NCBI GenBank assembly: GCA_965223415.1 | Contig: OZ245002.1 | Location: 4,160,001-4,224,000, forward strand | Direction of reading: 5' to 3' | Origin: Myxococcota bacterium | GTDB lineage: Bacteria; Myxococcota_A; UBA9160; UBA6930 | DNA: 64,000 nt | In this document: piece by piece, positions 5,499 to 31,840 of the stretch | How the letters are laid out: each line of letters starts with the position of its first letter | How positions within the stretch are numbered: position 1 is the stretch's first letter | Notes under the pieces: model-generated | The model's database searches: none | Told to the model about the DNA's origin: nothing | Seen by the model: only the letters and a program-made list of their open reading frames with translations | Position numbers and translations under genes: made by a program

Positions 5499-6326
5499 AT
5501 GTCGACCGTGACCGCCGCGAGCCAGCGCGAACACCGCGTGACCACCCGCTCCCTCCAGCGCGCGAAGCGCCGGGGCGAGCCGTTCTCGATGCTCACCGCC
5601 TACGACGTCACCTTTTCCCGCATCTTCGACCAGGCGGGCATCGACGTCCTGCTCGTCGGGGATTCGGTGGGCAACACCACCCAGGGTCACGAGAACACGC
5701 TCCCGGTGACCCTCGACGAGATGATCTACCACACGCGGATGGTCGTCCGCGGCGCCTCCCGCGCGCTGGTCGTGGGCGACATGCCCTTCGGCTCCTACCA
5801 GGTCTCGCCGGAGGACGGCGTCCGCAGCGCCATCCGGCTGATGAAGGAGGGCGGCGCCCACGCGGTGAAGCTCGAAGGCGGCCGCCGGGTGAAGGAGACC
5901 CTGGCCCGCATCGCGGGCGCGGACATCCCGGTGATGGGCCACGTCGGCCTCACGCCCCAGTCGGTGCACGCCATGGGCGGCTACCGGGTGCAGGGCCGCG
6001 GCGAGAGCGGCCGGGATCGGGTGATCCAGGACGCCCTGGCGGTGGAGGCCGCCGGGGCCTTCGCCCTGGTGCTCGAGGGCGTGCCCGCGGACCTGGCCCG
6101 GGAGATCACCGCGACGGTCGGCATTCCGACCATCGGCATCGGCGCCGGCGTCGAGTGCGACGGCCAGGTGCTGGTGCTCCACGACCTGCTCGGGCTCTCG
6201 GACTGGACGCCCAGCTTCGCCAAGCAGTACGCCAACCTGGGCGCGGCCGCCTCCCAGGCCGCCCGGCAGTTCGCCGAGGAGGTGGCGCACCGCAAGTTCC
6301 CCGGCGACGAGCACTCCTACCGTTAG
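5499..6326 (+). CDS. panB: 3-methyl-2-oxobutanoate hydroxymethyltransferase
   Basis: MLTAYD, LLVGDS, DMPFGSY, AVKLEGG, GHVGLTPQ, GIGAG..CDGQVLV. Confidence 0.97.
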   Translation: MSTVTAASQREHRVTTRSLQRAKRRGEPFSMLTAYDVTFSRIFDQAGIDVLLVGDSVGNTTQGHENTLPVTLDEMIYHTRMVVRGASRALVVGDMPFGSYQVSPEDGVRSAIRLMKEGGAHAVKLEGGRRVKETLARIAGADIPVMGHVGLTPQSVHAMGGYRVQGRGESGRDRVIQDALAVEAAGAFALVLEGVPADLAREITATVGIPTIGIGAGVECDGQVLVLHDLLGLSDWTPSFAKQYANLGAAASQAARQFAEEVAHRKFPGDEHSYR

Positions 6327-15488: not shown

Positions 15489-18400
15489 CTAGGAGCCGGC
15501 GCCGAAGGCCGCCGGCGTCGGGAAGCTCCCCGGATCCGTGCAGCGCGCGCGCCAGCGGCGGCGGAGCGCCCTCATCTCCCGTCCGCCGACCCCGGCGCCC
15601 TTCTTCAGCGCCAGCTTGTCGGGCGCGGAGACGCCGGCGGCACCCACCACGCGCACGAAGCAGGCGTTGGCCTTCTGGGAGCTCCACTTGAAGCGCCCGG
15701 TACCGTCGGCCGTGGTCATCCCGAGGACCTGGTCGGTCTCCGCGTCGCGGATCTCGAGGGCCTCCCCCGCGCCGGCGTGCTGGCCGCCCACCACGAGGAT
15801 CCGGCCCAGTCGGCTTCCGCGCATGCGGAAGCGGTGGACGCCCTCCGCCGACAGCAGCATCGGGCTGGCCGGTCCGCACTGGGCCGGAGCGTTCGTCACG
15901 GCCATACGGGCGCTCAGCTGGACGCCGGTGCGCACCTGCACGTTGCAGGGTGCCTGGGCCGGCGCGAGGCACCGGAAGACCGGGCGCTTGCCCTTGCGGC
16001 GTCGGGAGTCCCTGACCATGCGGCACTGGCCCGTCTTGAAGGCGCCACCGCGGTTGGCCATGAGCGTTGCCAGCACGTTGCCGCTGTCCGCGTCGAGGAG
16101 CTCGACCGCCGCGCCGCCGGGGGCGCCGGAGCCGCGCACCGCCAGGTGACCGCCCCAGGTATCCCACCAGATCGCCTCGTCGATCCCGAAGGCGCCCGCC
16201 CCCCCCTGGATGGCCAGGTTCACGACCTCCGAGTCGGACATCGGGGGCACGCCGTCGTCGGTTACCGTGAACGTGGCGTCGTAGCTGCCCGTCTGGCCGG
16301 TTCCCGGAGTCCAGCTGAAGCCGGCCGTACCGTCGCCGTTGTCGGTGAGGGCCGCGCCGGCCGGCAGGTTCGTCGCCGCCAGCGCCAGCCCGTTGCCGTC
16401 CGGGTCCGCCGCCATCACGGTGAAGGCGAGGGTCTGCCCCTGGAGCACGGTGCGGTTGCCGATGGGCGTGAGGGTCGGCGGGTTGTTCACGACACCGATG
16501 CCGATGGTGATCGCTTCGTTGGCCGAGAGCGAGCCGTCGGAGACCGTGAAGGTCACCGGGTGGCTGCCCACGTCGCCGGCTCCCGGCGTCCAGGTGAAGC
16601 TGCCGGTGCCGTCGCCGTTGTCCGTGAAGGTGGCGCCCATGGGCACGCCCGTTGCGCTGCAGGTCACCGCGTCGCCGTCGACGTCGGTGCCGGTGACGGT
16701 GAAGCTCAGCAGCTGGTTCGTGTTGCCGGCCTTGTTGCCGATCGGGGCCAGGGTGGGCGGCCGGTTCACGTCGCCCACGGTGATCATCACCGCCTCCTGG
16801 TCCATGGCTGCCGGCGTGCCGTCGTCGGTCACGGAGACCGTCACGTTGCGGTTGCCCGCGTCGCCGAAGCCCGGCGTCCAGGCGAGGGTGCCGGTGCCGT
16901 CGCCGTTGTCCTGCAGGGCCATGCCCAGGGGCGCCCCGGCCAGGGCGATGGTGAGACCGTCGCCGTCCGGATCCGTGGCCTGCAGCGCGAGCTGGAGGAG
17001 CACGCCCTCGTTGACGACCTGGTTGCCGATCGGCGTGAGCACCGGGGGTCGGTTCACGTTGCCGACCGAGATGGAGATCGCCTCGGTCACCGCCTGCACC
17101 GGCGTCCCGTTGTCCGTGGCCGTGAAGCTCACCTGGTGGTTGCCGCCCTGGTTGAAGGCGGGCGTCCAGGCGAAGGCGCCGGTGCCGTCGCCGTTGTCGT
17201 TCCAGGTGGCGCCGGTCGGCAGGCCGGCCACGGTGAGGGCCAGGGCGTCGCCGTCCGGATCCGTCGCGGTGACGGTGAAGCTCAGGAGCTCGTTCTCGTT
17301 CACCGCGCGGTTGCCGATGGGCGTGAGCATCGGGGGCCGGTTCACGTTGCCGACGGCGATCTGGATCGTCTCGGCGTCACTGGCAGGCGGGCTGCCCGTG
17401 TCGGTGACGGTGAAGGTGACGTTGTAGTTGCCCGTCGATCCGAAGCCGGGCGTCCAGCTGAAGCTGGCCGTGCCGTCGCCGTTGTCGGTGAAGGCCGAGC
17501 CGGTGGGCGCACTCATGGCGGTGATCGCCAGGCCGTCGCCGTCCGGGTCGCTCGCTGAGAGGTCCAGGTTCAGGGCCTCACCCTCGTTCACGGCCTGGTT
17601 GCCGATCGCCGCGAGGACCGGCGGGCGGTTCACGTCGCCTACCGAGATCATGAAGGTCTCGGCGTCCGAGAGCATCGGGCTGCCGTCGTCGGTGGCGGTC
17701 ACGGTGACCGTGAAATTGCCGGCCTGGTTGTAGCCGGGGGTCCAGGCGAGCGTGCCGGTGCCGTTGCCCGCGTCGTTGAAGGTCGCGCCGGTCGGCAGGT
17801 TCGAGGCGGCCAGGCTGAGGCCGTCGCCGTCCGGATCCGAGGCGCTGACGTTGACCATGAGGTTCGTGCCCTCGTTCACGGCCTGGTTGCCGATCGCGCC
17901 GAGAACGGGGGCCTGGTTCGCGTTGAAGACCGTGATCGCCACCGTCTCCATGGCCGTGCCGGGCGTGGCCGCGTCGTCCGACACCGCGAAGGTGACGTTG
18001 TAGACGCCCGCCTGGCCCATGGCGGGGGTCCAGTCGAAGCTGCCGGTGCCGTCGCCGTTGTCCGTGAAGGTGGCGGTGCCCGGGAGCGGAGCGGCCGTGA
18101 GCGTCAACACGTCGCCGGCGTCCGGGTCGCTAGCGCTCACGCCGAAGCTGAGGCGCTGGCCCTCGGTGGTCATCTTGGCGCCGATCGCCGCCAGGGTGGG
18201 CGCGGTGTTGCTGCCGCCGCCCACGTTGCAGAAGAAGGCGAGGTTCCCGTTGTCCCAGTGCATCTTCGCCACCGGGTCCACGTCGCCGCCGTCCGGCAGG
18301 TCGGTCGGGAAGGAGCTGTTGTGGCACATCGTGCACTCGGTCAGCATGCCGTCGCGCATGTCCGCGTAAGGGGTGGCCGGTGCGCAGATGGCGTCGACGG

Positions 18401-18494
18401 CCGTCCCGAAGGAGTCGACCGCCGAGGCGGCGGTCGGCAGCAGGAGGGTGCCGGCCAGCAGCAGGCGGAGGAGGGCGGAGACGGGATGACGCAT
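15489..18494 (-). CDS. Secreted protein: N-terminal CxxCH heme motif plus seven Ig/cadherin-like repeats
   Basis: Signal peptide, CTMCH, seven ~95-aa repeats N(R/Q/T/N)(P/A)PxLxxIG...DxD...D(N/A)GxGTxxxxWTP. Confidence 0.8.
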   Translation of the reverse strand: MRHPVSALLRLLLAGTLLLPTAASAVDSFGTAVDAICAPATPYADMRDGMLTECTMCHNSSFPTDLPDGGDVDPVAKMHWDNGNLAFFCNVGGGSNTAPTLAAIGAKMTTEGQRLSFGVSASDPDAGDVLTLTAAPLPGTATFTDNGDGTGSFDWTPAMGQAGVYNVTFAVSDDAATPGTAMETVAITVFNANQAPVLGAIGNQAVNEGTNLMVNVSASDPDGDGLSLAASNLPTGATFNDAGNGTGTLAWTPGYNQAGNFTVTVTATDDGSPMLSDAETFMISVGDVNRPPVLAAIGNQAVNEGEALNLDLSASDPDGDGLAITAMSAPTGSAFTDNGDGTASFSWTPGFGSTGNYNVTFTVTDTGSPPASDAETIQIAVGNVNRPPMLTPIGNRAVNENELLSFTVTATDPDGDALALTVAGLPTGATWNDNGDGTGAFAWTPAFNQGGNHQVSFTATDNGTPVQAVTEAISISVGNVNRPPVLTPIGNQVVNEGVLLQLALQATDPDGDGLTIALAGAPLGMALQDNGDGTGTLAWTPGFGDAGNRNVTVSVTDDGTPAAMDQEAVMITVGDVNRPPTLAPIGNKAGNTNQLLSFTVTGTDVDGDAVTCSATGVPMGATFTDNGDGTGSFTWTPGAGDVGSHPVTFTVSDGSLSANEAITIGIGVVNNPPTLTPIGNRTVLQGQTLAFTVMAADPDGNGLALAATNLPAGAALTDNGDGTAGFSWTPGTGQTGSYDATFTVTDDGVPPMSDSEVVNLAIQGGAGAFGIDEAIWWDTWGGHLAVRGSGAPGGAAVELLDADSGNVLATLMANRGGAFKTGQCRMVRDSRRRKGKRPVFRCLAPAQAPCNVQVRTGVQLSARMAVTNAPAQCGPASPMLLSAEGVHRFRMRGSRLGRILVVGGQHAGAGEALEIRDAETDQVLGMTTADGTGRFKWSSQKANACFVRVVGAAGVSAPDKLALKKGAGVGGREMRALRRRWRARCTDPGSFPTPAAFGAGS

Positions 18495-18703
18495 TGGGAT
18501 CGGGGCCTCGTGCGGAGATGGCTCGCAGCCGACCGGTCGACGGACCTGTCCGCGAGTTTCACCCCTTCGGACGCGGCCAAACCGCCCCGGGTGAGCCAGC
18601 TCACGGCAGGGCGTGCGCAGGCGGGAGGCACCTGCGCACGGACGAAGGGGGGGGCGGGCGGCGGGGGCCGCTGTGTGCGGTTCCAGCGGGACTGGATCCC
18701 CGT

Positions 18704-18732
18704 TTGCCAAGGCCCGCCACCGTGCCTAGCCT
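18704..18732 (+). promoter_or_regulatory. Sigma70-type promoter of ssrA
   Basis: TTGCCA, 17-nt spacer, TAGCCT, ending 10 nt before the mature 5' end. Confidence 0.65.
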
Positions 18733-18742
18733 TCGTGGGCTT

Positions 18743-19111
18743 GGGGGCGATCGGCTTCGACGGGTGGTCGAAGGCGTTCGCTGCGTGTCGAGGAGGCTAC
18801 GTCCCTCGTAAATCCCGTGGCACTGTTGGTAGCTTCATACCTGCCGACGATAACTACGCTCTCGCTGCCTAGTTGACCCTGGGCTAGCGACGTCCGTCCC
18901 CGACGCCTTCTAGGGGGTCGCGGGCGTCATCAGAAGGCTCGGCCGTCGGCCGCTGGCAGGCCGCCACCGAACGGCGACATCGACGTTCTGCCAAGGAGCG
19001 CCTCCTCCCGTCCCCGCGACTGGGCGCCCCGAGATCGAGCGGGGACTACACACGTAGACGCGACCGTCGGACATCACGCGGACGCGGGTTCGATTCCCGC
19101 CGCCTCCACCA
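18743..19111 (+). ncRNA. ssrA: tmRNA; tag peptide (A)ADDNYALAA encoded at 18843-18872
   Basis: 5' GGGGGCGA...TTCGAC; 3' T-arm GGGTTCGATTCCC plus GCCGCCTCCACCA; acceptor stem with G3.U; YALAA-stop tag; smpB upstream. Confidence 0.97.
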
Positions 19112-20373
19112 ATAACTTCTCGATTCTGCTGCGGTTTTCTTGGCGCCTTCGCGCCCTGCACCCCGTCCGCGCCCCGTGGAGGGCGCAGGACTTCGAGCAG
19201 CGCACGGTCGGCCATGCCCGCGTAGCGCCGCGTCGAGCGCACGTCGGCGTGGCCGAGGAAGGTCTGGAGGGCGCGCTCCGAGACGCCGGGGGCCGCCGCA
19301 TCCGTGGCGAAGGTGTGCTTCGTGCCGGCGTAGAGACTCACCTTTACACCCACCCGCTTGCACGCCTCGATCCAGGTGCGGCGCAAGCTGGTCCCGGACC
19401 AACGGCCGCGAGGTCGGATCCCGCGGCCGCTCCAGGGCACGGTGAAGAGCGGCTCCGCGCGGAGGCGTCCCTCGCGTGCGACTTGCTTCGCGATCCACTC
19501 CTGAAGCACCTGCGGCACCGGCAGCCGCTTCACCTTGCCCGTCTTCGTCGAGCGGATCGGCGAGTCGAGGCGGTCACCCTTGCGTGCCTTGCTCACCGTG
19601 AGCCAGCCGTCGTGGTAGTCGGCCACGTCGAGAGCCACGGCCTCACCGGGCCGCAGGCCCATGAGTGCCATGGCGAGATAGATCCCGCGCCGGTCCTCGG
19701 GAATCGCGTCGAGGATCTCGTCCTGCGTGCGCGCCGAGAGCGGCGCGGGCGTCCGTTCCCGCCGCTTCGGCCAGGGGTACTCGCGCGGGAGCTCGCGGAT
19801 CTCCTCGCGCCGGTAGAGCCAGCCGAGGAACGAGCGGAACGCCGCCAGTATGTTCCAGCGCGTCTTCGGCGACAGCCCGCGATCCGCCAGCCAGTGCGAC
19901 CAATCCTCCAGCGCCGCATAGCTCACTTCGTGGATGCTGCGCCCGGCCCACCAGGAGAAGTGGCCGTTCGGCGCCAGGTAGCACTCGAGCTCGCGCACGT
20001 ACGTCGGGCTCCGGTCGCCGGCCTCCGCTTCCCGCTTCTTCACCGCCAGCCAGTGCACGGCGCGTGCGAGCACCAGGTTGATCGCGTGGCCGGAGGGCAG
20101 GAAGATTGCCATCGCCTCGTCGACCGTGGCGCCCTGGGCGATGCGCGAACGGATCAGCTCGAGCGCACGGCTCGCGCTCTCCTCGGTCCACGGCATCCGG
20201 CCGCCCGGCACGGGCTGCGACCAGATCCGACGCTCCCCGCCACCCGCCTTGGGAAGCTCGACGTAGATGCGGCCGTCCTTGTGCCGCCTGACCGCCCCGA
20301 AGTCGCCCATCTCCAGCCAGGCCATAGCATGCGCGGCAGCGGCCTGGGAAGGGAACTGGCACCGGTACCCCAT
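18910..20373 (-). CDS. Tyrosine recombinase/integrase (frame reads through att into antisense ssrA; start 20373 or 20310)
   Basis: GLRPGE (R), TKT (K), LYAGTKHTFAT, LGHAD, TRRY (catalytic Y); SAM-like domain (LSPKTRWNIL); adjacent to ssrA. Confidence 0.88.
   Translation of the reverse strand: MGYRCQFPSQAAAAHAMAWLEMGDFGAVRRHKDGRIYVELPKAGGGERRIWSQPVPGGRMPWTEESASRALELIRSRIAQGATVDEAMAIFLPSGHAINLVLARAVHWLAVKKREAEAGDRSPTYVRELECYLAPNGHFSWWAGRSIHEVSYAALEDWSHWLADRGLSPKTRWNILAAFRSFLGWLYRREEIRELPREYPWPKRRERTPAPLSARTQDEILDAIPEDRRGIYLAMALMGLRPGEAVALDVADYHDGWLTVSKARKGDRLDSPIRSTKTGKVKRLPVPQVLQEWIAKQVAREGRLRAEPLFTVPWSGRGIRPRGRWSGTSLRRTWIEACKRVGVKVSLYAGTKHTFATDAAAPGVSERALQTFLGHADVRSTRRYAGMADRALLEVLRPPRGADGVQGAKAPRKPQQNREVIGGGGGNRTRVRVMSDGRVYVCSPRSISGRPVAGTGGGAPWQNVDVAVRWRPASGRRPSLLMTPATP
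19161..19176 (+). repeat. Candidate integrase arm-type site (second copy at 25931-25946)
   Basis: ccccgtccgcgccccg, identical 43 nt inside attL and 49 nt inside attR1. Confidence 0.6.
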
Positions 20374-21068
20374 CGATCCTCCCTCGCTCGCAGCGAGAGG
20401 CGCGGAGAACCGGATCCGGGAGGGCGACGAGAATCCACAAGAGCAATCGCCGTGCCGAAGAAGCCGTAGATCCGAGGAGCCGTTCATCAGCTCTCCGGAG
20501 CCTCACCGGCTGCTCAGGGCCCGCTCGCTGGCACTCGCTGGTTCCCGCCGTCGCGCCAACTCCCGTTGTTGGGCGGCGCCGCATCCGCAGCTGTGCCGCC
20601 AGTTGGCGGGGCGCTTGTTCGCAGGGCTACGGAAGGGCGGAGTGCACCGCGACGGAATCACGTTCGCACGGCGACGAGAACAACTCGGTGCGATCGATCG
20701 GCTGCGATGGCAGCTCGCGGTTACGGCAAGATAAGAGGGGGCCGGTGGTCGCGGAACCCATTGGTTCTACGACGGATCTCGTGGGCGGTTCGCGTGGCTG
20801 CGGGCCGGTCCGGGCCGGTTCGGCGCGGAGTACTTCGGGCGTCATCAGTCACACGTCAGGTTCGCGAAGATCGGCTCTGTCGCCTTCCATTCGTGGTCAC
20901 GACACCCGGCCGCTCGACTGCCGCGGGCCATGACGAAGGCTGAGGAAGTCGTGACCGGCTGTTGGCGCCGGGGCGTGGACGGACGGGCTCTGTTTCCTCC
21001 CATGGAACGCCGAGGCGCGTTCTCCATGCGCCTGGCAACGGGCACGGAGCTGGCAATCGCTCGTCAGG

Positions 21069-22754
21069 ATGGGCTTCGACGCTCTTCCCGTTCCCCATGG
21101 GCATGGCGCCAGCGGACATGGCAAGAAGCACGGCTACGCGCGGCGCCGCCCCGAGGAGAGCGTCCTCTACGGTGTGGTCCAGACGGAGCTCGAGACTTTC
21201 CTGGCTCGCGCGCAGGCACGTGAACGCCCTGTGCCGCGGTTCGTCGAGCGCGAGCTTCGGGGATTTCTCCGCTGCGGCATCCTCGCCCACGGCTTCGCGC
21301 GCGTGCACTGCGACGGCTGCGGACTCGACCGGGTCGTCGCCTTCTCCTGCAAGGGCCGCGGCTTCTGTCCGTCCTGCGGAGGACGACGCATGGCCGACAC
21401 GGCGGCGCACCTGGTGGATCGGGTCCTGCCGGAGGTGCCCGTCCGGCAGTGGGTGCTCTCGCTGCCCTTCGCGCTCCGCTACCGCCTCGCCTACGACGCG
21501 CCGCTCACGAGCGCCGTGCTGGGCGTCTTCGTACGCACGGTGTTCGCTTCGCTACGGCGTCGAGCGCGCAAGCGGTGGGGCGTCGCCCGCGGCCAGTGCG
21601 GCGCGGTCACCTTCGTGCAGCGCTTCGGCGGCGCTCTCAACCTGAACGTCCACTTCCACTCCTTGCTGCTCGACGGTGCCTACGCGGCGGGACCGGACGG
21701 CGCCCTGCGCTTCCTTCCCCTCCCTCCGCCAGACGATGCCGAGGTCGAGCGGGTCGTGGCGCAGGTCGCCCGGCGTCTTCGAGGGCTCCTCGAGCGCCAA
21801 GGTCTCGGCCCCGAAGCGGACCTGGCCGATGTTGATCCCCTGGCCGAGGGCGAGCCTCTTCTGGCCCAGCTCTACGGCGCCTCCGTCGCCGGACGTATTG
21901 CCACGGGCCGCCGCGCGGGCAAGCGCGTCGTCCGCGTGGGAGACCGCATCGACCTCGAGGATCTGCCGGCGCTCGAGGGCGAGCGCTGCGCGAGCGTGAG
22001 CGGCGTGAGCCTCCACGCGAACGTGGCCGTCCCGGCTCGCGACCGCCGGCGTCTGGAGCGGCTGTGCCGCTATGTGGCACGCCCTCCGGTCGCGACCGAG
22101 CGACTCTCGCGGCTCGAGGATGGGCGGCTCCTCTACCGCCTCAAGCACCGCTGGCGCGACGGCACGACCCATGTCGTCTTCGAGCCGCAGGAGCTGGTCG
22201 AGAAGCTCGTGGCCCTGGTTCCCCCGCCCCGCGTCCACCTCGTGCGCTACCACGGGATCCTGGGCCCGTGTGCGGGCGCGCGGGACCGCGTCGTGCCGGG
22301 CTCGTCGACCCCAGAGGGGCGGGTCCGCCCGCCGCCGAGAAAGCCGGCCGTGGATCTCCCTGCGGCGACATCCAGCACGACGCCAGTCGAAGAGAAACGG
22401 CGGGATTCGGCTCCCGACCGCTGCAAGCCACTGGGCCAAGACGAGAACGGAGCGACACCGGCGCCTTCCGGTCCCCAGGAGCCCGCGTCCGCGCTTGGCG
22501 ATTCGACGCCCCGCCCTCGACGACTGGCCTGGGCCGAACTCTTGCGGCGCGTCTTCGCAGCCGACGTCCTCGAATGCCCGCGCTGCGGCGGACGCATGCG
22601 GCTGCTGGCCGCGATCCAGCCGCCCGACGCCACCGGCGCCATCCTCGACTCCCTCGAGCTGCCTAGCCGTGCCCCACCCACGGCTCCGGCCCTCCCCGAT
22701 CCGCGGGATGCCGAGGAGTGGACCGGCGACTTCCAAGCGACCCTCCGAGTCTGA
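21069..22754 (+). CDS. IS91/ISCR-family rolling-circle HUH transposase
   Basis: Zn-binding C..C...SCKGRGFCPSCG, RQWVLSLP, NVHFH (HUH), RLCRYVARP (single Tyr), RYHG, C-terminal CPRCGG. Confidence 0.92.
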   Translation: MGFDALPVPHGHGASGHGKKHGYARRRPEESVLYGVVQTELETFLARAQARERPVPRFVERELRGFLRCGILAHGFARVHCDGCGLDRVVAFSCKGRGFCPSCGGRRMADTAAHLVDRVLPEVPVRQWVLSLPFALRYRLAYDAPLTSAVLGVFVRTVFASLRRRARKRWGVARGQCGAVTFVQRFGGALNLNVHFHSLLLDGAYAAGPDGALRFLPLPPPDDAEVERVVAQVARRLRGLLERQGLGPEADLADVDPLAEGEPLLAQLYGASVAGRIATGRRAGKRVVRVGDRIDLEDLPALEGERCASVSGVSLHANVAVPARDRRRLERLCRYVARPPVATERLSRLEDGRLLYRLKHRWRDGTTHVVFEPQELVEKLVALVPPPRVHLVRYHGILGPCAGARDRVVPGSSTPEGRVRPPPRKPAVDLPAATSSTTPVEEKRRDSAPDRCKPLGQDENGATPAPSGPQEPASALGDSTPRPRRLAWAELLRRVFAADVLECPRCGGRMRLLAAIQPPDATGAILDSLELPSRAPPTAPALPDPRDAEEWTGDFQATLRV

Positions 22755-22891
22755 GCGCTGGGGCCGGCTCGGGACCGACGGGCCAAGCCGTTTCGACCGC
22801 GGCTGGGCTGGCCCGAGGGAGACGTCCGCCCGCAATTCGCAGCGCAAGCGCCGACGAACGGCGACCGGACAGCGCGACCCGCTTGAATGCC

Positions 22892-22983
22892 CCGCCTACG
22901 GTCTCGCTAGACCGAAATCCCCCGGGGAGTTGTCATTTTGGGGGTTATCGGACCTCGAACGCCCGCTTGTCCGGCCTATCCGC
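22892..22983 (+). repeat. oriIS-like terminus, copy 1 (92 bp)
   Basis: Downstream of the HUH transposase; hairpins; ends gcttgtccggcctatccgc, similar to ISCR oriIS ...TTCCTATACC; identical to 25018-25109. Confidence 0.75.
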
Positions 22984-23862
22984 GGGACCCAGTTGCTGGA
23001 GGGGGAGGGGCGCTGTCGCCGTATCACCTGCCCCTTCCATAGCTGGGCCTATGGCTTGGATGGCAACCTACTGGCAGCGCCCCATATGGAGGCGAGCAAG
23101 AGCTTCGATCGTGCTCAATTCGGCCTGCTGGAATTGCCGCTTGCGGAGCGTGCTGGCCTCCTCTTCTTGCATTTGGGGAGTAAGCCAGGCGACCTGGACG
23201 ATCAGCTTGGCGACTTCGCCACCCTGCATGCCCCCTGGCCGCTGCAGGATTTGGTCTCGACACGGCGCCGGAACCTCGAGGTCGACTGCAACTGGAAGGC
23301 CTTCCTGGAGGTCTTTAACGAGTACTATCACCTAAGGTACGTGCATCCCAAGACCATCGACGGCCTATATCAAGCCCCCGACTTACCCGATCAAACCTCT
23401 GGCAGCTATGCCAGCCAATTCGGCGAGACCAGCGGTACCGGCGCCTTGCTGCGCGAGCAGCAGGAGCACGCCCTGCCGGTGATGCCCCGCCTAGAGGGAC
23501 GCTGGAGCCGGGGTGTGCGCTATACTTGGCTCTTCCCCAACATGACCTTCGCCGCCGGCCGCGAAGCCCTTTGGATGTACGAGGCCTATCCCCTGGGGCC
23601 AGACCGCTGCCGGGTTACTCAGACCATTTGCTTTCCGCCGGAAACCATCGCGGCTACCGGATTTGAGGATCGCGCCAGTGCCTATTACCAGCGCCTCGAT
23701 GCGGCATTGGAAGAAGACATTGTGGTTCTGGAACGCCAGCAGCGCGGCCTGGCGTCCACGCACGCGCGTGCCGGCCCCTTTGCCGCCCGTCTGGAGCCCA
23801 GCGTTGCCGCCTTCGCCGCCTGGTACGCCCGCCAACTCCTCGAAACGCCAGACACTCCCTAG
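22984..23862 (+). pseudogene. 5'-truncated Rieske non-heme iron oxygenase alpha subunit (choline monooxygenase-like)
   Basis: Starts at RGTQLL, lacking the first CxH; retains CPFHSWAY, NWK...E.YH...VHP and EED. Confidence 0.82.
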
Positions 23863-24359
23863 CCCGGCATGAAGGGAATATCGGTGTCGTCCAGCGTGCA
23901 GCCGGCGGCGGTGAGCATGGCGTGCACTTGGCCGCGGTGGTGGGTTTGGTGATTGAACATGTGGGTGACGAGCAGCCACTTGGGCTTGGATACCTCGCGC
24001 CCAACGGCACCCGAAAACCAGGCAAAATCGCCTTCAAGCCAAGCGGGATCGAGGTTTTCCGCCCAGTCGATGATGACCTGGTCGAAGGCCGGCCGCTCGA
24101 CCATCAGCTCGGACCACTCGTAGTGATTGCCTGAATCGGGGATTCCGGATGCCTTTGGAGCCGGGATGTCGGCAAAACGGCTCATCCAGATCTGATCACC
24201 CCACAAAATATGGCTCAAGGTTGCGTGGATGGAGCCAAAGAAGGCACCGCGTGGTTGCTGGCGTTCCACCTCGTTCAAGCCGCCGGCGGCCCGGTAGTGG
24301 CTTTGGTTCTGCCAGCAGTTATAGGCGGCCATCGTCTTTACATAGTCGGTTGTAATCAC
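23859..24359 (-). CDS. DinB family protein
   Basis: YN.WQN, FFGSIHATLSH, HMFNHQTHHRGQVH. Confidence 0.88.
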   Translation of the reverse strand: MITTDYVKTMAAYNCWQNQSHYRAAGGLNEVERQQPRGAFFGSIHATLSHILWGDQIWMSRFADIPAPKASGIPDSGNHYEWSELMVERPAFDQVIIDWAENLDPAWLEGDFAWFSGAVGREVSKPKWLLVTHMFNHQTHHRGQVHAMLTAAGCTLDDTDIPFMPG

Positions 24360-24458
24360 AGTGGGTCTCCCTTCTGCGCAGTTTGCGCGACCGGCCACAC
24401 AATGCCATCGGGGCCCCGAAGGGCCCCGCGGATCGAACTGGTCTCTCTCGCAACGCCG

Positions 24459-25017
24459 CTATGAGACGTGATAGAGCGACTGCGCCGATACCATGGCGAA
24501 GAGCATGGGGATCGAGAGCAGGGTGTTGGTGCGCGAAAACAGCATCGCCGTGCGGGCGGCTGCCGCCTTGGCTGTCGCGTCAACCTCGACCATGCCCAGA
24601 GCCTTCTTCTGGTTGGGCCAAATCACGAACCAAACGTTGAACCACATGATCATGCCAAGCCACATGCCGATGCCAATAGAGGTATGACCAATCTCGCCGG
24701 AAGTGGCGCCCAGAGTAAGGGCGTCGACCAGATAGCCATTCATCATGGCCAGGATAAGGCCGGTGACGATGGTTGCCATGGCGCCCCAGCGGAACCACCA
24801 CAAGGCAGCCGGAGCAATCACCTTGCCAATCGCCGGTTTTTGGTCGTCAGGGATATTCGGCATGTTGGGAATCTGTACGAAATTGAAATACCACAAGAGA
24901 CCGATCCACATGACGCCGCTTAAGACATGCAGCCAGCGGAAGAAGAACTTGCCGAATTCGGCACCTGTGTATCCCCAGGCGAAGTAGATGATGAATAAGA
25001 TCAGCGCCAAGACAAAG
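24459..25017 (-). pseudogene. 5'-truncated PuuD-like (urate hydroxylase family) membrane protein
   Basis: RWLHVLSGVMWIGLLWYFNFVQ, WWFRW, NVWFVIWPNQKK, SRTNTLLSIPM; frame is cut upstream by the oriIS copy. Confidence 0.72.
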
Positions 25018-25109
25018 CCGCCTACGGTCTCGCTAGACCGAAATCCCCCGGGGAGTTGTCATTTTGGGGGTTATCGGACCTCGAACGCCCGCTTGTCCGG
25101 CCTATCCGC
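25018..25109 (+). repeat. oriIS-like terminus, copy 2, followed by terminal-motif stutter to ~25140
   Basis: Identical to 22892-22983; then cctatccgc, atccgc, ggatcacgcctatccg. Confidence 0.8.
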
Positions 25110-25211
25110 CCTATCCGCATCCGCGGATCACGCCTATCCGACCGCTTCGCGCTGTTGAGGGGGCGGAGGCACGACACACGGGCCCGACGGATTGCCTTCG
25201 GCCTCAGCTCC

Positions 25212-25613
25212 CTAGGGAGCGATGATCTCGAGCCCGGGGAAGTACGTGCGGTAACGCGTCGCATCCCGGGTAACCAGGATCAGTCCTGCGACCGCCGCAT
25301 GGGCGCCGATGTAGAAGTCGGGCAGGGGGGACCTCCGCGGGCCGCGCCGGCGCCGATATCGTACGAAGCACTTCCCGGCCAGGAAGGCCGCCTCCCAGGG
25401 CAGGGAAAGTCGGAGGAAGTCCTCCTCGGGAAGGGCGTCCTGGAGATCCTCGACCCGCTCGAACCGGATCGACACCTCGGCATAGATCAACGGGTTGATC
25501 GCGAGCGCAGAGCTCTCGGCGCACTCGGCGAGCGTCTCCCCGGACCACGCGGACCACTCCGGGTCCTCGGTCATGATGTCGAGCAGGACGTTGCTGTCGA
25601 CGAGGACGGTCAG
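25212..25613 (-). CDS. vapC: VapC/PIN-domain toxin (apparent CTG start)
   Basis: VLVDSNVLLD, INPLIYAEVS, LPDFYIGAHA, LVTRD. Confidence 0.88.
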   Translation of the reverse strand: MTVLVDSNVLLDIMTEDPEWSAWSGETLAECAESSALAINPLIYAEVSIRFERVEDLQDALPEEDFLRLSLPWEAAFLAGKCFVRYRRRRGPRRSPLPDFYIGAHAAVAGLILVTRDATRYRTYFPGLEIIAP

Positions 25614-25849
25614 CGACCGCCCCGGGTCAGCGCCAGGATCTCGTCCGTGGTCATTCGAACCGATCCGCGGCCGCGCAGTCGCTCGACGATGGACTTTCCG
25701 CGGCGCCCCGCACGGCCGGCGCGTCGGACCTTTCGCAGCCGGACGGCCTTGCCGACGATCTCGAACTCGACCTCGGTGTTGGGCAGCAGGCCGAGCTTCT
25801 CGCGGATCTCGACGGGGATGGTCACCTGGCCCTTGGTGGTGATCTTCAT
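25610..25849 (-). CDS. vapB: AbrB/MazE-like antitoxin
   Basis: MKITTKGQVTIPVEIREKLGL...VEF; stop overlaps the toxin start. Confidence 0.9.
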   Translation of the reverse strand: MKITTKGQVTIPVEIREKLGLLPNTEVEFEIVGKAVRLRKVRRAGRAGRRGKSIVERLRGRGSVRMTTDEILALTRGGR

Positions 25850-25850
25850 G

Positions 25851-25874
25851 GTATTACCTCGAGAAGTAATACTA
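25851..25874 (-). promoter_or_regulatory. vapBC operator palindrome overlapping a -10 element
   Basis: gtattac-N8-gtaatac; TAGTAT on the minus strand. Confidence 0.6.
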
Positions 25875-26085
25875 CAGGAGACCGGGTACGCGGGCACCGC
25901 CCGGGTGGCACCTCGTCGTCTTGTCCAGCGCCCCGTCCGCGCCCCGATCCCGGCTTGGAAGTGCCCGATTTCCCTGACTTCTTGCCTCCCTGCCGGCGGG
26001 TTCGATTCCCGCCGCCTCCACCAATAACTCCCCGGAATCGCCACGCTTCGCGAACCGCGATTCCGCCGTCCGCCCGGATGGCCAA

Positions 26086-26930
26086 TCATCCGAGGGCCTC
26101 TGAGCAGCAGAACCGCACCTTCTCTCCTGATCCGCATGGACAGGGCAAGTACGGCCCGATCCGGTTCTGGGCGCACTTCTCTTCGAGAATCCGCCGGAGA
26201 GTTTTCCACGGCCTTGTCGGCGTAGCGTACGTCGTTCCAGATGGCCGCTTGCGGAGGCCCAGTCTGAGGAGGCTTGGCGACGTACAAGCGGCTGAACTCG
26301 TCACGCGCCCGCTCCGACACGGCGGCGGGTACGGCCCGCGACAGCCCGCTGTTGACGGAGACGGCGACGTCGGCGGCTTCGCTCGCCTGCAGCCGACCGA
26401 GAACCTCCGGCCGGAGTTCGTCGGCAGCAGCCGTCCCTCGGAAAGCCCGTATCGCGTCGATGATCGCGGGCCCTGCTCCAGCGCCCAGATCCGCGGAGAA
26501 CCTCCCCGCGACGACATCTCCCGTGGCCGCTTCCGCCCATTCCTCCGCTGGTAGAGCTGCGAAGGCTGTCCCTGCAAGGAGGGCCTTCGCGAACCAAGGA
26601 CTCAAGCCGGGCTGACCCCAGCAAGTTGTGCAGCCGGTCGAGGGACCGGACTGGAGCGAACAGGCGCACAAAGCACACGAGGCCGCCGATCAGGTCGTGA
26701 ATCGCGCTCGTCTCTGGGTTGGGAAGCTCGGCGTTGAAGCGGGTGCCCGCTACCAGCTGGTTGGTGTTGCCCGATTCGCTCTGCAGGTCTGCCGTCGCGG
26801 AGGTTCTCCACGTGCCCGACGGATGGAGTTCAATCGGGTTGTTGGCGCGGGATGCGATCTCCTCGACAACCGAGATGGAGGTCCGATGATCCTTCAGCTT
26901 CTCCGGGGCGTACCGGATGACACGCACGGG
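26086..26930 (-). pseudogene. Frameshifted remnant with C-terminal SEC-C motif
   Basis: IGPYLPCPCGSGEKVRFCC; coding-like stretches split over three frames. Confidence 0.5.
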
Positions 26931-27089
26931 CGTACCGGTCGGCGACGAAGCACGAACGGGTGGCCGCGGAGATCGGAAACGGGATCGTGTTCAAGATCCT
27001 GGTCGGCTTCGCGCCGCAGCGGTTCCTGCGGCTCGATCCCGTGGACAGCCGGTAGAGCCTAGCGCGGCACCTTCGGATAGAGTGCCGGC

Positions 27090-28208
27090 ATGGCCGTCGA
27101 CCCTCCCGCGTCCGCCGCATGGCGCGAATTCTGCCGAGCGCTCGAGCGGGCGGGTGCGGTGCTCGAACGCGAACCGCTCGCGCGTGACCCGCTGTCGCTC
27201 GCCGAGGGCCATCGCCACTTGTTGCGGATGATCCGCCTCGGTTTCGAGTGCGTCTCGGAGTATGGCGACCCCGGGCACCCCCAGCTTTTCGAGATGGCGA
27301 GCGCGACCAAGCTCTCGGAGGGCGTCACGTCAGACGCGCGCTACCACCAGGCGTTCATCGATGGCCGCGCCCACCACGTGATCCGCGGCGACCGTGGGGA
27401 AGCCCCGCTCATCGAGATCGGGGCGTACGAGGGAAGGATGGGCTTGCATCCCTCGAACGCGTTGCTCGGCTGCCTGACCGAGGCCGAGCTGGTGGTCGAC
27501 GGCGACGGGCGCTTCGAGATCGCGCTCGGCCCCGAGGAACGGCCCGGCAACTGGTTGCGCACTGACGCACGCACGAAGTGCGTGTTCATCCGCGAGTACG
27601 CCCACGACTGGAGCCGGACGCGCGGGGCCCGGCTCGAACTCGTGCGCGCTGATGCGTCCCCGGGGCTGCGCCCACCGCTCACGCTCGAGGAGATCACCGA
27701 CGCGCTCGAGCGCACCGCACGCTTCGTGGAGACAGCGCCCGCCACGTGGGCCGATATCTCCGACTACTGGGCCGGCACCGCGAAGAACCGCATCGTTCCG
27801 CAAGAAGGGGCGTCGTCCGACACGGACATCGTCGTGCCGAGTGGGCATCGGTTTGCGTGCGGTTACTTCGAGCTCGAGCCCGACGAAGCGCTGGTCGTCC
27901 GCTTCGCGCCGCCCAGGGACACGGCGTACTGGGGGATCCACCTCGACAACTACTGGTACGAGCCACTCAGCTGGGAGGATGCGCGCTCGCAGCGCAACGA
28001 TCGCAGCGTGTGCTACGAGCCCGATGGGAGCGTCGTGCTGGTCGTCTCGTCGCAGTCGCCGGGCGAGGATGCGAACTGGCTGGATACGCAGTCCCACACC
28101 CAGGGCTCGATCGTCTTCCGCTGGTCGCGGAGCGAGGCGCCGTGTCCGGCGTTCGACTGTCGCGTCGTCCCCATCGATCGTTGGCGCGACGAAGGGGGAA
28201 GGGCATGA
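27090..28208 (+). CDS. DUF1214-like protein
   Basis: LAEGHRHLLR, D..Y..A.IDG...IRG.RG, PGNWL, YW...L.NYW.E.L, NWLDT..H..G...FRW. Confidence 0.72.
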   Translation: MAVDPPASAAWREFCRALERAGAVLEREPLARDPLSLAEGHRHLLRMIRLGFECVSEYGDPGHPQLFEMASATKLSEGVTSDARYHQAFIDGRAHHVIRGDRGEAPLIEIGAYEGRMGLHPSNALLGCLTEAELVVDGDGRFEIALGPEERPGNWLRTDARTKCVFIREYAHDWSRTRGARLELVRADASPGLRPPLTLEEITDALERTARFVETAPATWADISDYWAGTAKNRIVPQEGASSDTDIVVPSGHRFACGYFELEPDEALVVRFAPPRDTAYWGIHLDNYWYEPLSWEDARSQRNDRSVCYEPDGSVVLVVSSQSPGEDANWLDTQSHTQGSIVFRWSRSEAPCPAFDCRVVPIDRWRDEGGRA

Positions 28209-28723
28209 CGACCGCCTCTCCCGTGCCGCGGCGGGACCGCTTCGTCGTGGGAACCGGGCGATGTGGTTCGACGCTGCTGTCGAAGATGCTGGCGCGCCAT
28301 CCGGACGTGCTGAGCCTCTTCGAGTTCTTCTCCGGCATCGACCAATTCTTCCGTTTCCGCATCGACCCGGTGCCCGGCACGGAGCTCGCGCGGCGTCTCG
28401 AAGAAGATCACCCGATGCTGACGATGGTCCTGCGGCGCGGCTACGAGGTCCCGGAGGTCGCGTATCCTTTCGGTGCCGCGCAAGCCCGCTTGACCCCGGA
28501 CGATCCGATTCCGTGGACGCTCGCGATCGCCATCGCCCGCGTGTCCGACGATCCCGACGCGCTGTTCGCCGAGATGATCGCCCGCGCGTGTCGAGGGACG
28601 TCATCTCTTGCGCGCTAAGAGGACGGCTAGTTTTGCGCACCCCCCTGGGTTGATGTTCGGTTCTTCCTTCTTCTCTTCCGCTCTCCGAAGGAGAGCACGG
28701 CCGTCAGGCCGCCCTCTGGGGCC

Positions 28724-29524
28724 TCAACGCTGGGCGCTTTGCCCCGCGGCCTGCTCGAGCTCGCGGAGCCGGTAGCTCCGCCCCGAGATGTTGAGCACCT
28801 GGCTGTGGTGGAGGAGGCGATCGAGGATGGCGGTGGCCAGCACCTCGTCGCCCGCCAGCACCTCGGGCCAGTCGGCGATGCCCTTGTTCGTGGTGATCAG
28901 GATCGAGCCCCTCCCATAGCGGTAGGAGACGAGCCGGAAGAAGAGGCTCGCCTCCTGGCGCGTCATGGGCTCGAAGCCGACCTCGTCGATGACGAGGAGC
29001 GCCACGTTCATGTGCTTGCGCCGCCGCAGCCGTTGCGGGCTGATCTCGGCGTCGCGCTTGAGGGCCGCCAGCAGGTCCTCGAGGCGATGGAAGGCCACGG
29101 AGAAGCCGTTCTCCACGGCCCGCACCCCCAGGGCCACCGCCAGGTGGGTCTTGCCCACTCCCGGCGGACCCTGGATCAGCAGACTCTCCTTGGCCCGGAT
29201 CCACGCGCAGGTGCCCAGCGTCTCGATCCGGCTCCGCTCCACACTCGGCTGGAAGGCGAAGTCGAAGTTGCCGAGGGTCTGCCCCGTGGGAAGGCCCGAG
29301 AGACGGAGCGAGGTCTTCATCCTCCGCTCCTCGCGGTGCTGCAGCTCGGCCTCGAGCAGCAGGTCGAGGAAGCGGTGGGGCACGAGGTCGTCCTTGGTCG
29401 CTCGGGCCAGCTCCTCGCCGATGTGCTCGGCCGCGTGATGGAGGCCGAGGCGCACGAGCCGCTCGCGGGTCGGGTCGAGATCCACCTTGCCGCCCTTCTT
29501 GGGCACCGGGTTTCCCGCCGTCAT
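28724..29524 (-). CDS. istB: IS21 helper AAA+ ATPase
   Basis: GPPGVGKTHLA, LLVIDEVG, ITTNK, AILDRLLHH, G.SYR. Confidence 0.95.
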   Translation of the reverse strand: MTAGNPVPKKGGKVDLDPTRERLVRLGLHHAAEHIGEELARATKDDLVPHRFLDLLLEAELQHREERRMKTSLRLSGLPTGQTLGNFDFAFQPSVERSRIETLGTCAWIRAKESLLIQGPPGVGKTHLAVALGVRAVENGFSVAFHRLEDLLAALKRDAEISPQRLRRRKHMNVALLVIDEVGFEPMTRQEASLFFRLVSYRYGRGSILITTNKGIADWPEVLAGDEVLATAILDRLLHHSQVLNISGRSYRLRELEQAAGQSAQR

Positions 29525-30807
29525 CGCGCCACCTCCGCCAGATCGGCATAGAGGTCGATCGGCCGCTGCTCCGGCTCCATCGCCCACAGCTCCTGGAGGC
29601 GTCGACCCATGCGCCCGAGCGGTACGGGCGCCTCCACCCCCTCCGTGCTCGGCCCCTCGTAGTGGCTCGGGTCCAGCAGCAGGCGGCTTCGCGTGTGGCG
29701 CGGGTGCGCGGCCACCACCGAGCCCTCGGCCCAGACCTGCACCTGCCGGGCGCAGCCGCGCACCTCGACGCTCTGCTCGACGAAGCGGAAGGGGACGCTG
29801 TAGGTACGCCCCTCGAAGCGCACCGTGGCGTCGCGCCCGACACGTCGCATCACGGCCAGGTCGAAGGGCTCGGGAAGCCGCTCGGGCAGGGCCCCGAGAT
29901 GGGGCTTCTCCGCCTCCCACGCCTGGAAGACCGTCGTGCCCGTCGCCGGGCACTGCCGCCGGTGGCTCGAGCGCGCCACCTGGCCGTCCGTCCACGCTTG
30001 CAGCGACTCCAGGCTCTCGTGCTCCCGCCGACGCGGATCGAAGCCCCGCCGGTGCCCCAGGATCCGACGCTCCACCTTCCCCTTCTCCTGCGGCTGGCGG
30101 GGACGGGTGGCGTCCACGTGGAAGCGAAGGGCCCCGGCATAGCTCGCGTAAGCCGGGTTCACCGTCCCCCATGGCCCCGCCCCCTTCGCCACCGCTGTCT
30201 TCACGTTGTCGACCCGCAGCACCGCCGGCACCCCGCCCAGCCGCTCGAAGGCCCGGTTGTGCACGTCCAGCCACGCCAGCGTGTCCGCCCGCTCCGACCA
30301 CACCACCGCTTCTCGCCGCGAGTGCGAGAGCACCAGGTGGAAGGCATGCAGGTCCACCTCCTGGCCCCCGATCCGCACGCCCGGAAACTCGCCCCAGTCC
30401 ACCTGACCCTGCGCCCCGGGCGGTGTCTCCACCCGACGCCGGCTCCGCACCTTCGGTCTCGGGAACCGGGCCCGCACGTACCGCTGCACGCTCTTGGAGC
30501 TCCCCGTGTACCCGTGCTCCTCCACCAGGAACTCGTGAAGCTCCTGCAGGTTCACGCCACGGCCTCCCGAGCTCGCCTCCAGCCACTCCGCGATCACCTC
30601 GTGGACCGCCTCGGCCAGGAAGGGCTTCCCGCTCCGGCCGTCTCGCGCCCCCTCCGCCAGCCGCTTCAGCCGGTAGCGCACCGCGCTCTCCCGGATCCCC
30701 AGCTGGCGGGCGATCTCCCGGTTCGAGCACCCCCGCTCGTGCAGCACTTCGATCGTCATCACTTCCTCCTGCCTCAGTCGCCGCTGCCCCACGCCCCCCT
30801 CCCTCAC
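29521..30807 (-). CDS. istA: IS21 DDE transposase (start approximate)
   Basis: N-terminal HTH, ETPPGAQGQVDWG, GGVP...VDNVK, PQEKGKVER. Confidence 0.93.
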   Translation of the reverse strand: MREGGVGQRRLRQEEVMTIEVLHERGCSNREIARQLGIRESAVRYRLKRLAEGARDGRSGKPFLAEAVHEVIAEWLEASSGGRGVNLQELHEFLVEEHGYTGSSKSVQRYVRARFPRPKVRSRRRVETPPGAQGQVDWGEFPGVRIGGQEVDLHAFHLVLSHSRREAVVWSERADTLAWLDVHNRAFERLGGVPAVLRVDNVKTAVAKGAGPWGTVNPAYASYAGALRFHVDATRPRQPQEKGKVERRILGHRRGFDPRRREHESLESLQAWTDGQVARSSHRRQCPATGTTVFQAWEAEKPHLGALPERLPEPFDLAVMRRVGRDATVRFEGRTYSVPFRFVEQSVEVRGCARQVQVWAEGSVVAAHPRHTRSRLLLDPSHYEGPSTEGVEAPVPLGRMGRRLQELWAMEPEQRPIDLYADLAEVAR

Positions 30808-31840
30808 GGGGAACGTGCCGCGCAGCGGCTCAACAGGAGGTGCGCAAATCTACGTGTCCTCTTAGCCCTCGAATATCACGTCCTGCGACACGCGCGAGTG
30901 GGCAGGCTGTGCAGCCCCTCGCGATGCACTACCGGGAGCTGCTCGACTGGCTCACCGAGCGCACGGGCAAGCGACTCTGGATCGAGCGCTCCGGAACGTC
31001 GATGGACTTCGCTGCCGAGCTCAAGGCCTTCTTCCCGGGCGCGCGCTTCGTGCACATCTACCGCGATCCCCAGGAGACCGCGCTGTCGATGCGAGAGTAC
31101 TCCGTGCTGCGCCTCGCCGTACCGGTCATGAACGGTCTGCTCGGGCCCGTTGAGTACTCGCACGACGGCCTCGTACGCTTTGAACAGGAGAACGCAGGGG
31201 CGATCAGTGAGACGCTGGCGTCCCGGCCGCCGGTCGAGCTCTACGGCGCCTATTGGAGTGACCAGGTCGTCCGCGGTATGGATGTGCTCGGCCAACTCGA
31301 TCCGAACGACGTGATGGCGCTGCGCTTCGAGGACCTCGTGGTCGCGCCCCGCCCGATCCTCGTGCGAATGGCCGACTTCTTCGAGCTGCCCACCGCGGAC
31401 CGCGACTGGGTCGAGGAGGCCTGCCGCCTCGTAAAGGGCGTTCCGCCCACGCGCTTCGACAGCTTGCCGGCGCCCGAGCAGGCTCGGCTCGCGGACGCGT
31501 GTGCGCCGGGCGTGGCCAGGCTCGAGGAAGCCGGCTTGCGAGAGCCCTCCTAGACGCTTCTGCGACGACCCAACCGAAGACGACGCACGTCGGCACGATC
31601 TTCTGACGCCATGCGGACCCGGGTTCGATTCCCGCCGCCTCCACCGACTTTCAAGTAGTCTGAGTTACTTGCGTACGAAATCGCCGCTCTTCGGAGACCC
31701 GCATCGGCCACTTCGAACCCGAGTGGATTCGAGGTGTTGCGCGTCTCACTTCTGACCATAGGGCGCCGGTATACGACCCGGCACACTGGCCGCCGAGGCG
31801 CTTCACGGATCGGCGATTCCGCGAGCAAGGAGGCAACGAC

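Follow-up and report, generated by a model that had tools for sequence, protein, structure and literature searches.

An IS91-family element with a second copy of its origin end

We analyzed 64,000 nucleotides (nt) of a Myxococcota chromosome (here called the window; GenBank assembly GCA_965223415.1, contig OZ245002.1, positions 4,160,001 to 4,224,000 of the forward strand), taken from a genome (G000) closed as a single contig of 5,833,097 bp with a GC content of 0.710. The window contains an insertion sequence (IS) with the transposase gene tnpA, followed by 2,034 bp of apparently alphaproteobacterial DNA and then by a second, identical copy of the last 92 nt of the IS. We refer to these 92 nt as the origin module; copies of it recur in unrelated contexts apart from any transposase. 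A preliminary description of this DNA, made from the letters alone, had proposed a HUH transposase of the IS91/ISCR type with foreign cargo between duplicated origin ends, and a small non-autonomous unit delimited by CCGC.

On its sequence features, the element at approximately 20951 to 22983 is an intact IS91-family rolling-circle IS. Its tnpA (21069 to 22754, plus strand) encodes an intact transposase of 561 amino acids with the domains PF04986 Y2_Tnp (1.4e-26) and PF14319 Zn_Tnp_IS91 (3.4e-18); the frame is free of stops and includes HFH and RYVAR motifs. TnpA shares 38.6 to 40.8% identity, over 92 to 96% of its length, with annotated IS91/ISVsa3 transposases on plasmids, and the proposed HUH/IS91 assignment of the transposase agrees with all of these features. 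The closest relatives in the protein collection reach 91% identity, and those with a named source are labeled Myxococcota, Myxococcales, or Deltaproteobacteria. The gene is single copy in the genome (one match).

The two ends of the IS are unlike each other (GTGACCGG... on the left, ...CCTATCCGC on the right), its flanks are unrelated, and there is no target-site duplication, as in IS91. Among the 25 longest of 74 inverted repeats, no pair linked the two ends. The left, terIS-side end lies at 20951 to 20990 (plus strand), where similarity to three related IS copies starts (GTGACC...); local alignment with the relative at locus L005 starts at 20951, and the relative at L151 has the same start next to a different flank, which places the terminus at ∼20951 approximately. 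In five relatives the left end begins with GACC or GAAC. The motif ACGGCAAGATAAG at 20723 was considered as the true left end and rejected. It is absent from L151, and it also stands beside a paralogous integrase at 1.8728 Mb of genome G000 without any IS, so it belongs to the island described below. In L005 and L010 it precedes tnpA by 350 to 460 bp, and in L029 it is close to a tnpA that is truncated.

To define the right end, we aligned the element with L005 to L008, whose transposases are 71 to 82% identical to TnpA, and compared L027 (60%) by motif. A conserved block downstream of tnpA, running from CGCTTGAAT to CCTAKCCGY, is common to all five, and past CCTAKCCGY their sequences are unrelated. 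Because the repeat is conserved after tnpA in relatives, with similarity stopping at CCTAKCCGY, we take it to be the right, origin-type (oriIS-type) end of the IS. Conservation of the IS end starts ∼24 nt to the left of the repeat, at CGCTTGAAT, and these positions form an origin-region block (CGCTTGAATGCC..., 22868 to 22891, plus strand; alignment with L005 to L008) that is found only before the IS-borne copy and not in solo modules. The second copy lacks those ∼24 nt. The module is thus a 5'-shortened origin end.

Both copies of the repeat are on the plus strand. Copy 1 (22892 to 22983) forms the right tip of the IS, and relatives have it conserved after their tnpA; copy 2 (25018 to 25109) comes without a transposase, and its start coincides with the boundary that recurs in solo modules. 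They are 100% identical, as the preliminary description had stated, with a start-to-start spacing of 2126 nt, and they are the only two full copies in the closed genome. A 38-nt module relic of 84% identity was seen at positions 3015500 to 3015537 of G000 C1 (L003, 1501 to 1538, minus strand). It corresponds to the left part of the module, beginning at the same boundary with CCGC, and no transposase is near it.

Copy 2 is followed by remnants of further origin tips (25110 to 25141, plus strand), with a second CCTATCCGC at 25110 to 25118 and a degenerate CCTATCCGA at 25133 to 25141. The 9-nt tip is thereby present twice in tandem (25101 to 25118) before the third, degenerate one. Comparable tip duplications follow modules in L111, L121, and L156, and such duplications may be scars of collapsed modules.

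The segment between the repeat copies, the cargo (22984 to 25017; 2,034 bp), has a GC content of 0.606, compared with 0.720 for the IS and the genome value given above. It starts with a fragment of a Rieske oxygenase alpha subunit gene (22984 to 23862, plus strand; Rieske profile positions 48 to 87 of 88, and Ring_hydroxyl_A), continues with a whole DinB-family gene (23859 to 24398, minus strand; Pfam), and ends with a fragment of a Urate_ox_N-type membrane protein gene (24459 to 25016, minus strand; Pfam Urate_ox_N). The two outer open reading frames (ORFs) correspond to residues 97 to 385 of a 390-residue homologue and residues 80 to 264 of a 264-residue homologue, respectively. The cargo is colinear with positions 5998 to 8033 of L090, from the chromosome of a Rhodospirillales metagenome-assembled genome (GC content, 0.626), with 89.07% nucleotide identity over 2041 nt, and in L090 all three genes are intact and adjacent. 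The host genome holds no other piece of the L090 locus. By sequence comparison, then, the cargo is foreign and of alphaproteobacterial origin, and the lower GC content, the gene truncation at both ends, and the foreign source that had been proposed all stand. Since the best relative of the donor is only 89% identical, the true donor is unsampled.

Read-level support for the arrangement

As an independent check of the assembly, we compared Logan contigs of the public runs X11, X12, and X14 with the window. A 360-nt contig (22954 to 23313) bridges copy 1 into the cargo with 0 differences, and two contigs (25080 to 25263 and 25080 to 25613) bridge copy 2 into the flank, again with no differences, so that two of the three junctions between repeat and cargo or flank are crossed. 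The depth of exact matches to the cargo followed that of the IS in every run (120 to 128 for the cargo versus 124 for the IS in X11, 4.0 to 4.9 versus 4.5 in X12, and 10.1 to 11.3 versus 12.8 in X14).

These data bear on the concern that the cargo comes from an alphaproteobacterium of the same samples and was attached to the host through the repeat during assembly. A related alphaproteobacterial locus is indeed abundant there, one example being a contig of 2,428 nt that shows 19 differences over 243 nt, at depths of 55.8 and 202. That organism is ∼8% different from the cargo, however, whereas the exact cargo contigs follow host depth over a 30-fold range in three runs and cross two junctions. 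The genome is also a single closed contig, and the same architecture recurs in unrelated assemblies. An assembly chimera is therefore very unlikely, and we give it hardly any weight. The relative of the cargo donor in X11, X12, and X14 could be followed over window positions 23284 to 25020; at ∼8% divergence, its gene is uninterrupted, and its depth is unlike that of the host.

Solo modules in other genomes and metagenomes

We searched for an 18-base core of the module in public metagenome contigs and in 225 genomes of the same class. The metagenome search returned 59 contigs with 59 distinct sites, and any tnpA match was found at only 5 of 64 metagenome loci. Eleven of the 225 genomes (G000 included) carried the core, compared with 0 for a reversed-pattern control.

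The CTACGG subgroup of modules comprised 30 sites. Nine of these sites had an IS-type left block, 20 were solo, and 1 was left unassigned; module length was 92 to 94 nt in 26 of the 30. In the 20 solo copies, which lie in unrelated contexts, similarity starts at the same place as in copy 2 of the window. The four bases before CTACGG in these solos were CCGC in 14, CTGC in 2, and TCGC, CGCC, GGCC, and GCGC in 1 each, and two further sequence subfamilies showed the same pattern at the equivalent position. A few modules (L138 and L140) begin ∼20 nt further to the left, also at a CCGC, and no tnpA lies within 2 kb of the L140 copy. One and the same right flank was seen on three contigs (L113, L129, and L163), after an IS-linked module in two of them and after a solo module whose left flank differs in the other. 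The origin end is accordingly found alone, apart from a transposase and in unrelated contexts, as a miniature right-end element would be. These comparisons strongly support the view that the repeat behaves as a discrete unit of its own, in keeping with the small unit of the preliminary description. We judge its mobility from its boundaries, because no simple insertion with a matching empty site was found.

The shared boundary also bears on a composite origin, in which two full IS copies would have surrounded the cargo and the second would later have been mostly removed by random deletion. IS91/ISCR copies around passenger genes are described as common on plasmids (PMC5737581). Random deletion, however, would not stop at the same base as 20 independent solo modules, and the genome holds no trace of a second tnpA. 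We regard a decayed composite as highly improbable.

The module has no conserved secondary structure, a possibility rejected on two grounds. The region folds no better than shuffled sequences (z = −0.27 for the top strand and +0.36 for the bottom strand), and in a clean alignment of 20 distinct modules neither strand had a supported helix or a conserved attC-like fold. The hairpin that had been noted after the first CCGC of the repeat (CGGTCT-CGCT-AGACCG, 6 bp) does appear in the DNA fold of the window; it is not conserved among relatives, and the fold is like that of shuffles.

Module arrays and genes cut at module edges

In arrays, module copies lie on the same strand 1.0 to 9.1 kb apart, two or three per contig, without tnpA between them. 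We found such arrays on five metagenome contigs and five genome contigs (G443 C204, G443 C94, G021 C91, G436 C110, and the window). Inverted module pairs were not seen. Tandem full IS copies can be discarded as the source of these arrays, given the one tnpA in the genome and none between modules in any array.

As in the window, genes in other loci are often cut at module edges, wherever Pfam gives information. An FGE-sulfatase gene in L108 retains profile positions 82 to 254 of 255, a P450 gene in L194 retains positions 236 to 431 of 462, and a short-chain dehydrogenase gene (adh_short) in L124 retains positions 1 to 138 of 195, with its end missing at the module edge; in L116, only the N-terminal part of a DUF772 transposase is left at the edge. 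On contig PVMS01041884.1, the distal modules differ in sequence variant from the IS-proximal module.

A candidate route of capture

Two laboratory systems provide precedents. In Bardaji et al. (2011; PMC3189936), IS801 is described as moving right-end fragments of 229, 360, and 679 nt, which make up ∼26% of transposition events, and as sometimes mobilizing adjoining DNA. For IS91, PMC13181058 gives the last 82 bp plus a tetranucleotide as sufficient for the origin, 1 to 10% of events as one-ended, and the bottom-strand circle as the active form.

We lean, by a small measure, toward the interpretation that the cargo plus the outer copy is a one-ended transposition product inserted at the nick site of the resident origin. 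The last 92 nt of the IS would be the oriIS module at which the transposase nicks to start transposition. Transposition from the tip that stopped early, just before the CGCTTGAAT block, would release a miniature element of 88 to 92 nt, by the same process that yields the 229- to 679-nt right-end miniatures of IS801. A solo module would then be an origin without a proper terminator, and its next round of transposition would run into the DNA on its left until stopped at a chance look-alike of the nick site, which is one-ended transposition. In the window, a module from this IS would have landed in alphaproteobacterial DNA and carried off the adjoining 2,034 bp, and the unit of cargo plus module would have inserted at the best available target, the nick site that the resident IS has at its tip, to give the order IS, module, cargo, module, and old flank. 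The order of events, the direction of capture, and where the alphaproteobacterial DNA lay at that time are what we infer from the final arrangement. The preliminary description had called mobilization on the origin side an atypical capture route; no new chemistry would be needed, as ordinary one-ended transposition from a solo module, which experiments have demonstrated for IS801 and IS91, can give the same structure. That the copies are perfectly identical suggests a recent process, carried out in full within one cell that held the alphaproteobacterial DNA.

The same identity can be read differently. A 2,126-bp circle of module plus cargo, or a tandem-duplication intermediate, may have been integrated by homologous recombination between modules, with no transposase in the final step. 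One crossover within the module would give exactly this product, with copies 100% identical, and the modules of L108, which match over their first ∼55 nt and differ toward the tip, are compatible with a crossover inside the module. IS801 fragments are reported to reflect mostly reorganizations (PMC3189936). Recombination nonetheless leaves the origin of the circle unexplained, as well as the module boundaries shared by 20 unrelated contexts, and 92 nt is a short substrate. We consider this explanation rather unlikely.

Junction sequences and the direction of capture

The repeat begins and ends with CCGC, which had been put forward as the tetranucleotide recognized by this element. In favor of that proposal, CCGC precedes CTACGG in most solos and ends the module in the subfamily of the window. 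Against it, the last four bases of the module vary by subfamily (CCGC, GCGC, GCGT, CCGT, and CCAT), and CCGC is in any case a common tetranucleotide in this genome (14.8 per kb per strand). The left boundary of the module is fixed within ∼4 nt and reads CCGC, then CTAC.

A classical IS91/IS801-type tetranucleotide was found at offset +1 from the tip in 10 of 58 cases, and at each of the other offsets in 2 to 4 of 58. One of the 10 is the copy 1/cargo junction, which reads tip, G, GGAC. Read along the transferred strand, the tip resembles two other sites, the internal boundary (GTAG followed by GCGG) and the copy 1/cargo junction (GTCC, C, and then GCGG). The cleavage rule that we infer from this likeness would place the cut immediately 5' of GCGG in that strand, which corresponds to CCGC on the strand shown.

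The preliminary description had further made CCGC at both breakpoints in the donor a test, and the closest donor relative does not show it. In L090 the breakpoints read TCGC on the Rieske side and CCGG on the other, each with three of the four bases of CCGC, in a relative that is only 89% identical to the cargo. As near matches, these breakpoints would count in favor of one-ended transposition from the module into the DNA on its left.

Other features of the junctions fit a capture of opposite polarity, in which the mobile unit would be the module plus the cargo on its right. The IS or a module would have inserted canonically into the alphaproteobacterial Rieske gene, read-through past the tip would have taken the 2 kb downstream, and the unit would have inserted at the internal boundary of the resident IS, after CCGC and before CTACGG. 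The copy 1/cargo junction has the canonical tip-N-GGAC form, TCGC directly precedes the junction in the donor relative, and within the G443 and G073 subfamilies one copy does not have the same four bases ahead of the module as another, as if these bases derived from the target. The variable bases before the G443 modules thus allow this polarity. It would, however, require the strand opposite to that of IS91, for which PMC13181058 names the bottom-strand circle as active, and the differing distal and IS-proximal variants on PVMS01041884.1 fit modules that arrive to the right of each cargo. We think this polarity improbable, yet worth keeping in view.

Several observations weigh against one-ended transposition from a mobile module as the source of the arrangement. 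Only the 10 of 58 tips adjoin a classical tetranucleotide. The recurrent left boundary lacks a GAAC-type tetranucleotide, which leaves the analogy with IS801 miniatures incomplete, and the G443 subfamily is variable at the four positions ahead of the module (CTGC, TCGC, and CGCC), which fits a tetranucleotide derived from the target. Solo modules stand beside complete genes in L153, L162, L205, L128, and L145. We found no empty-site counterpart for solo modules, where the G443 relatives were too distant and gave gene-level matches only. In the donor-lineage genome G548, neither a TnpA relative nor the origin core (with up to 2 mismatches allowed) was found, so that lineage gives no sign of having hosted the module. 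The two copies show no differences at all, which requires that the event was very recent, that it took place within one cell, or that gene conversion acted. Lastly, the cargo/copy 2 junction (25017/25018) was not among the 32 contig matches listed of 692; this junction rests on the closed assembly and on an X11 contig break 30 nt into the repeat.

The tmRNA-linked islands around the element

The IS and its cargo lie within a small genomic island at the tmRNA gene (ssrA; 18743 to 19111, plus strand; ARAGORN, tag ADDNYALAA). The last 34 nt of the gene region, at 19084 to 19117, form the left attachment repeat of island 1, and the right attachment repeat at 25996 to 26029 (plus strand) matches the tmRNA 3' end at 100% over 34 nt (blastn). 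A third copy of the 3' end, at 31613 to 31645 (97% over 33 nt, blastn), closes a second island (26030 to 31645), so that two small islands stand in tandem. Island 1 (19118 to 25995; 6.9 kb) lies between direct repeats of the tmRNA 3' end. Its first gene is for a tyrosine integrase (18910 to 20487 as a stop-to-stop frame, minus strand; Pfam Phage_integrase, 3.1e-9, and Phage_int_SAM_1), after which come the IS with its cargo and then a toxin/antitoxin pair. The pair consists of a PIN-domain toxin gene (25212 to 25574, minus strand; Pfam PIN, 1.1e-5) and, after it, an antitoxin-type gene with a MazE/AbrB fold (within 25610 to 26671; Pfam MazE_antitoxin, 1.1e-8). Toxin-antitoxin genes (PIN, HigA-like antidote, and ParE) often occur just past module tips, in L205 (G073 C92), L163, and L197 as well as in the window.

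The motif ACGGCAAGATAAGAG, at 20719 to 20745, adjoins the island integrase. It recurs as an inverted pair beside a paralogous integrase (67% nucleotide identity) at ∼1872800 to 1874500 of G000 C1 and is found also in L005, L010, and L029, close to IS copies related to this one. A role as operator in this family of islands is possible. In run X1, from another study, contigs 96% identical to the IS cover window positions 20722 to 22953. One X1 contig also covers 20722 to 20820, which suggests that a related organism has this island too, with the IS in the corresponding position. Directly upstream of the tmRNA gene is a large gene for a "tandem-95 repeat"/Ig-like surface protein (15489 to 18710, minus strand), which has a 59% identical paralogue elsewhere in the same genome.

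Relation to known rolling-circle systems

The element shares with IS91 a transposase with Y2_Tnp and Zn-binding domains, two unlike ends, the absence of a target duplication, and an origin downstream of tnpA, of which a short segment suffices in IS91 (82 bp). It differs in having no orf121-like gene overlapping tnpA, in the small fraction of tips (the 10 of 58) beside a classical CTTG/GTTC-type target, and in a TnpA only ∼40% identical to plasmid-borne family members. The likeness to IS801 lies in short right-end fragments that occur alone with a defined left boundary, and in adjoining DNA that is carried off when termination fails. The IS801 fragments came from a trap assay and are bounded by a GAAC-type tetranucleotide, whereas the module here is only 92 to 94 nt long, is bounded by CCGC/CTAC, and is found in many natural contexts. 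A further difference is that module-DNA-module arrays here stand on the origin side of the IS.

ISCR2/ISVsa3 elements are the nearest annotated plasmid relatives of TnpA, at the identities given above. After the ISVsa3 tnpA, we noted by eye, with no statistics, motifs shared with the module (AGTTGTC, GTTATC-GA, and a CTAT-rich tip) at differing spacing (L216, 2190 to 2390; plasmid NZ_CP142038.1). As described, ISCRs capture DNA on their terminator side and have no recognizable terIS. The present element differs from them in its conserved left end (window, L005, and L151) and in cargo that lies beyond the origin, between two origin copies.

By analogy, the alternation of short modules with captured pieces of unrelated genes resembles Helitron capture and the cassette arrays of integrons. 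The window has only a generic Phage_integrase beside the tmRNA gene, with no IntI and no attC-like structure, and so differs from an integron; it differs from Helitrons in being a bacterial system with another transposase family. In the literature on IS91-family, oriIS, and miniature elements, we saw neither solo oriIS modules of 90 nt nor arrays on the origin side described, in a search whose coverage did not extend to most subscription journals or the original IS91 papers.

The structure at this locus is genuine and clearly delimited, an IS91-family member with natural, recurrent origin-side capture built on a minimal origin module. A broader proposal, which we offer only tentatively and think less probable than its opposite, is that the 92-nt module is a portable capture site that takes up neighboring DNA, and that the products are stacked at the resident IS origin into cassette-like arrays of whole and fragmentary genes, as a bacterial counterpart of Helitron fragment capture. 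By such a route, DNA from another phylum may come to be fixed in the host chromosome.

IS91-family and ISCR elements are important vehicles for genes of resistance, virulence, and catabolism, and their uptake of passengers has been argued from few laboratory systems. This locus and its relatives provide natural material, with a minimal origin module, sharp boundaries, many solo copies, and arrays of fragments, one of them from another phylum. If it is true that the module alone is mobilized and drags neighboring DNA with it, origin-side capture would be an ordinary outcome of rolling-circle transposition, and the sequence rules for nicking and termination could be read from natural junctions.

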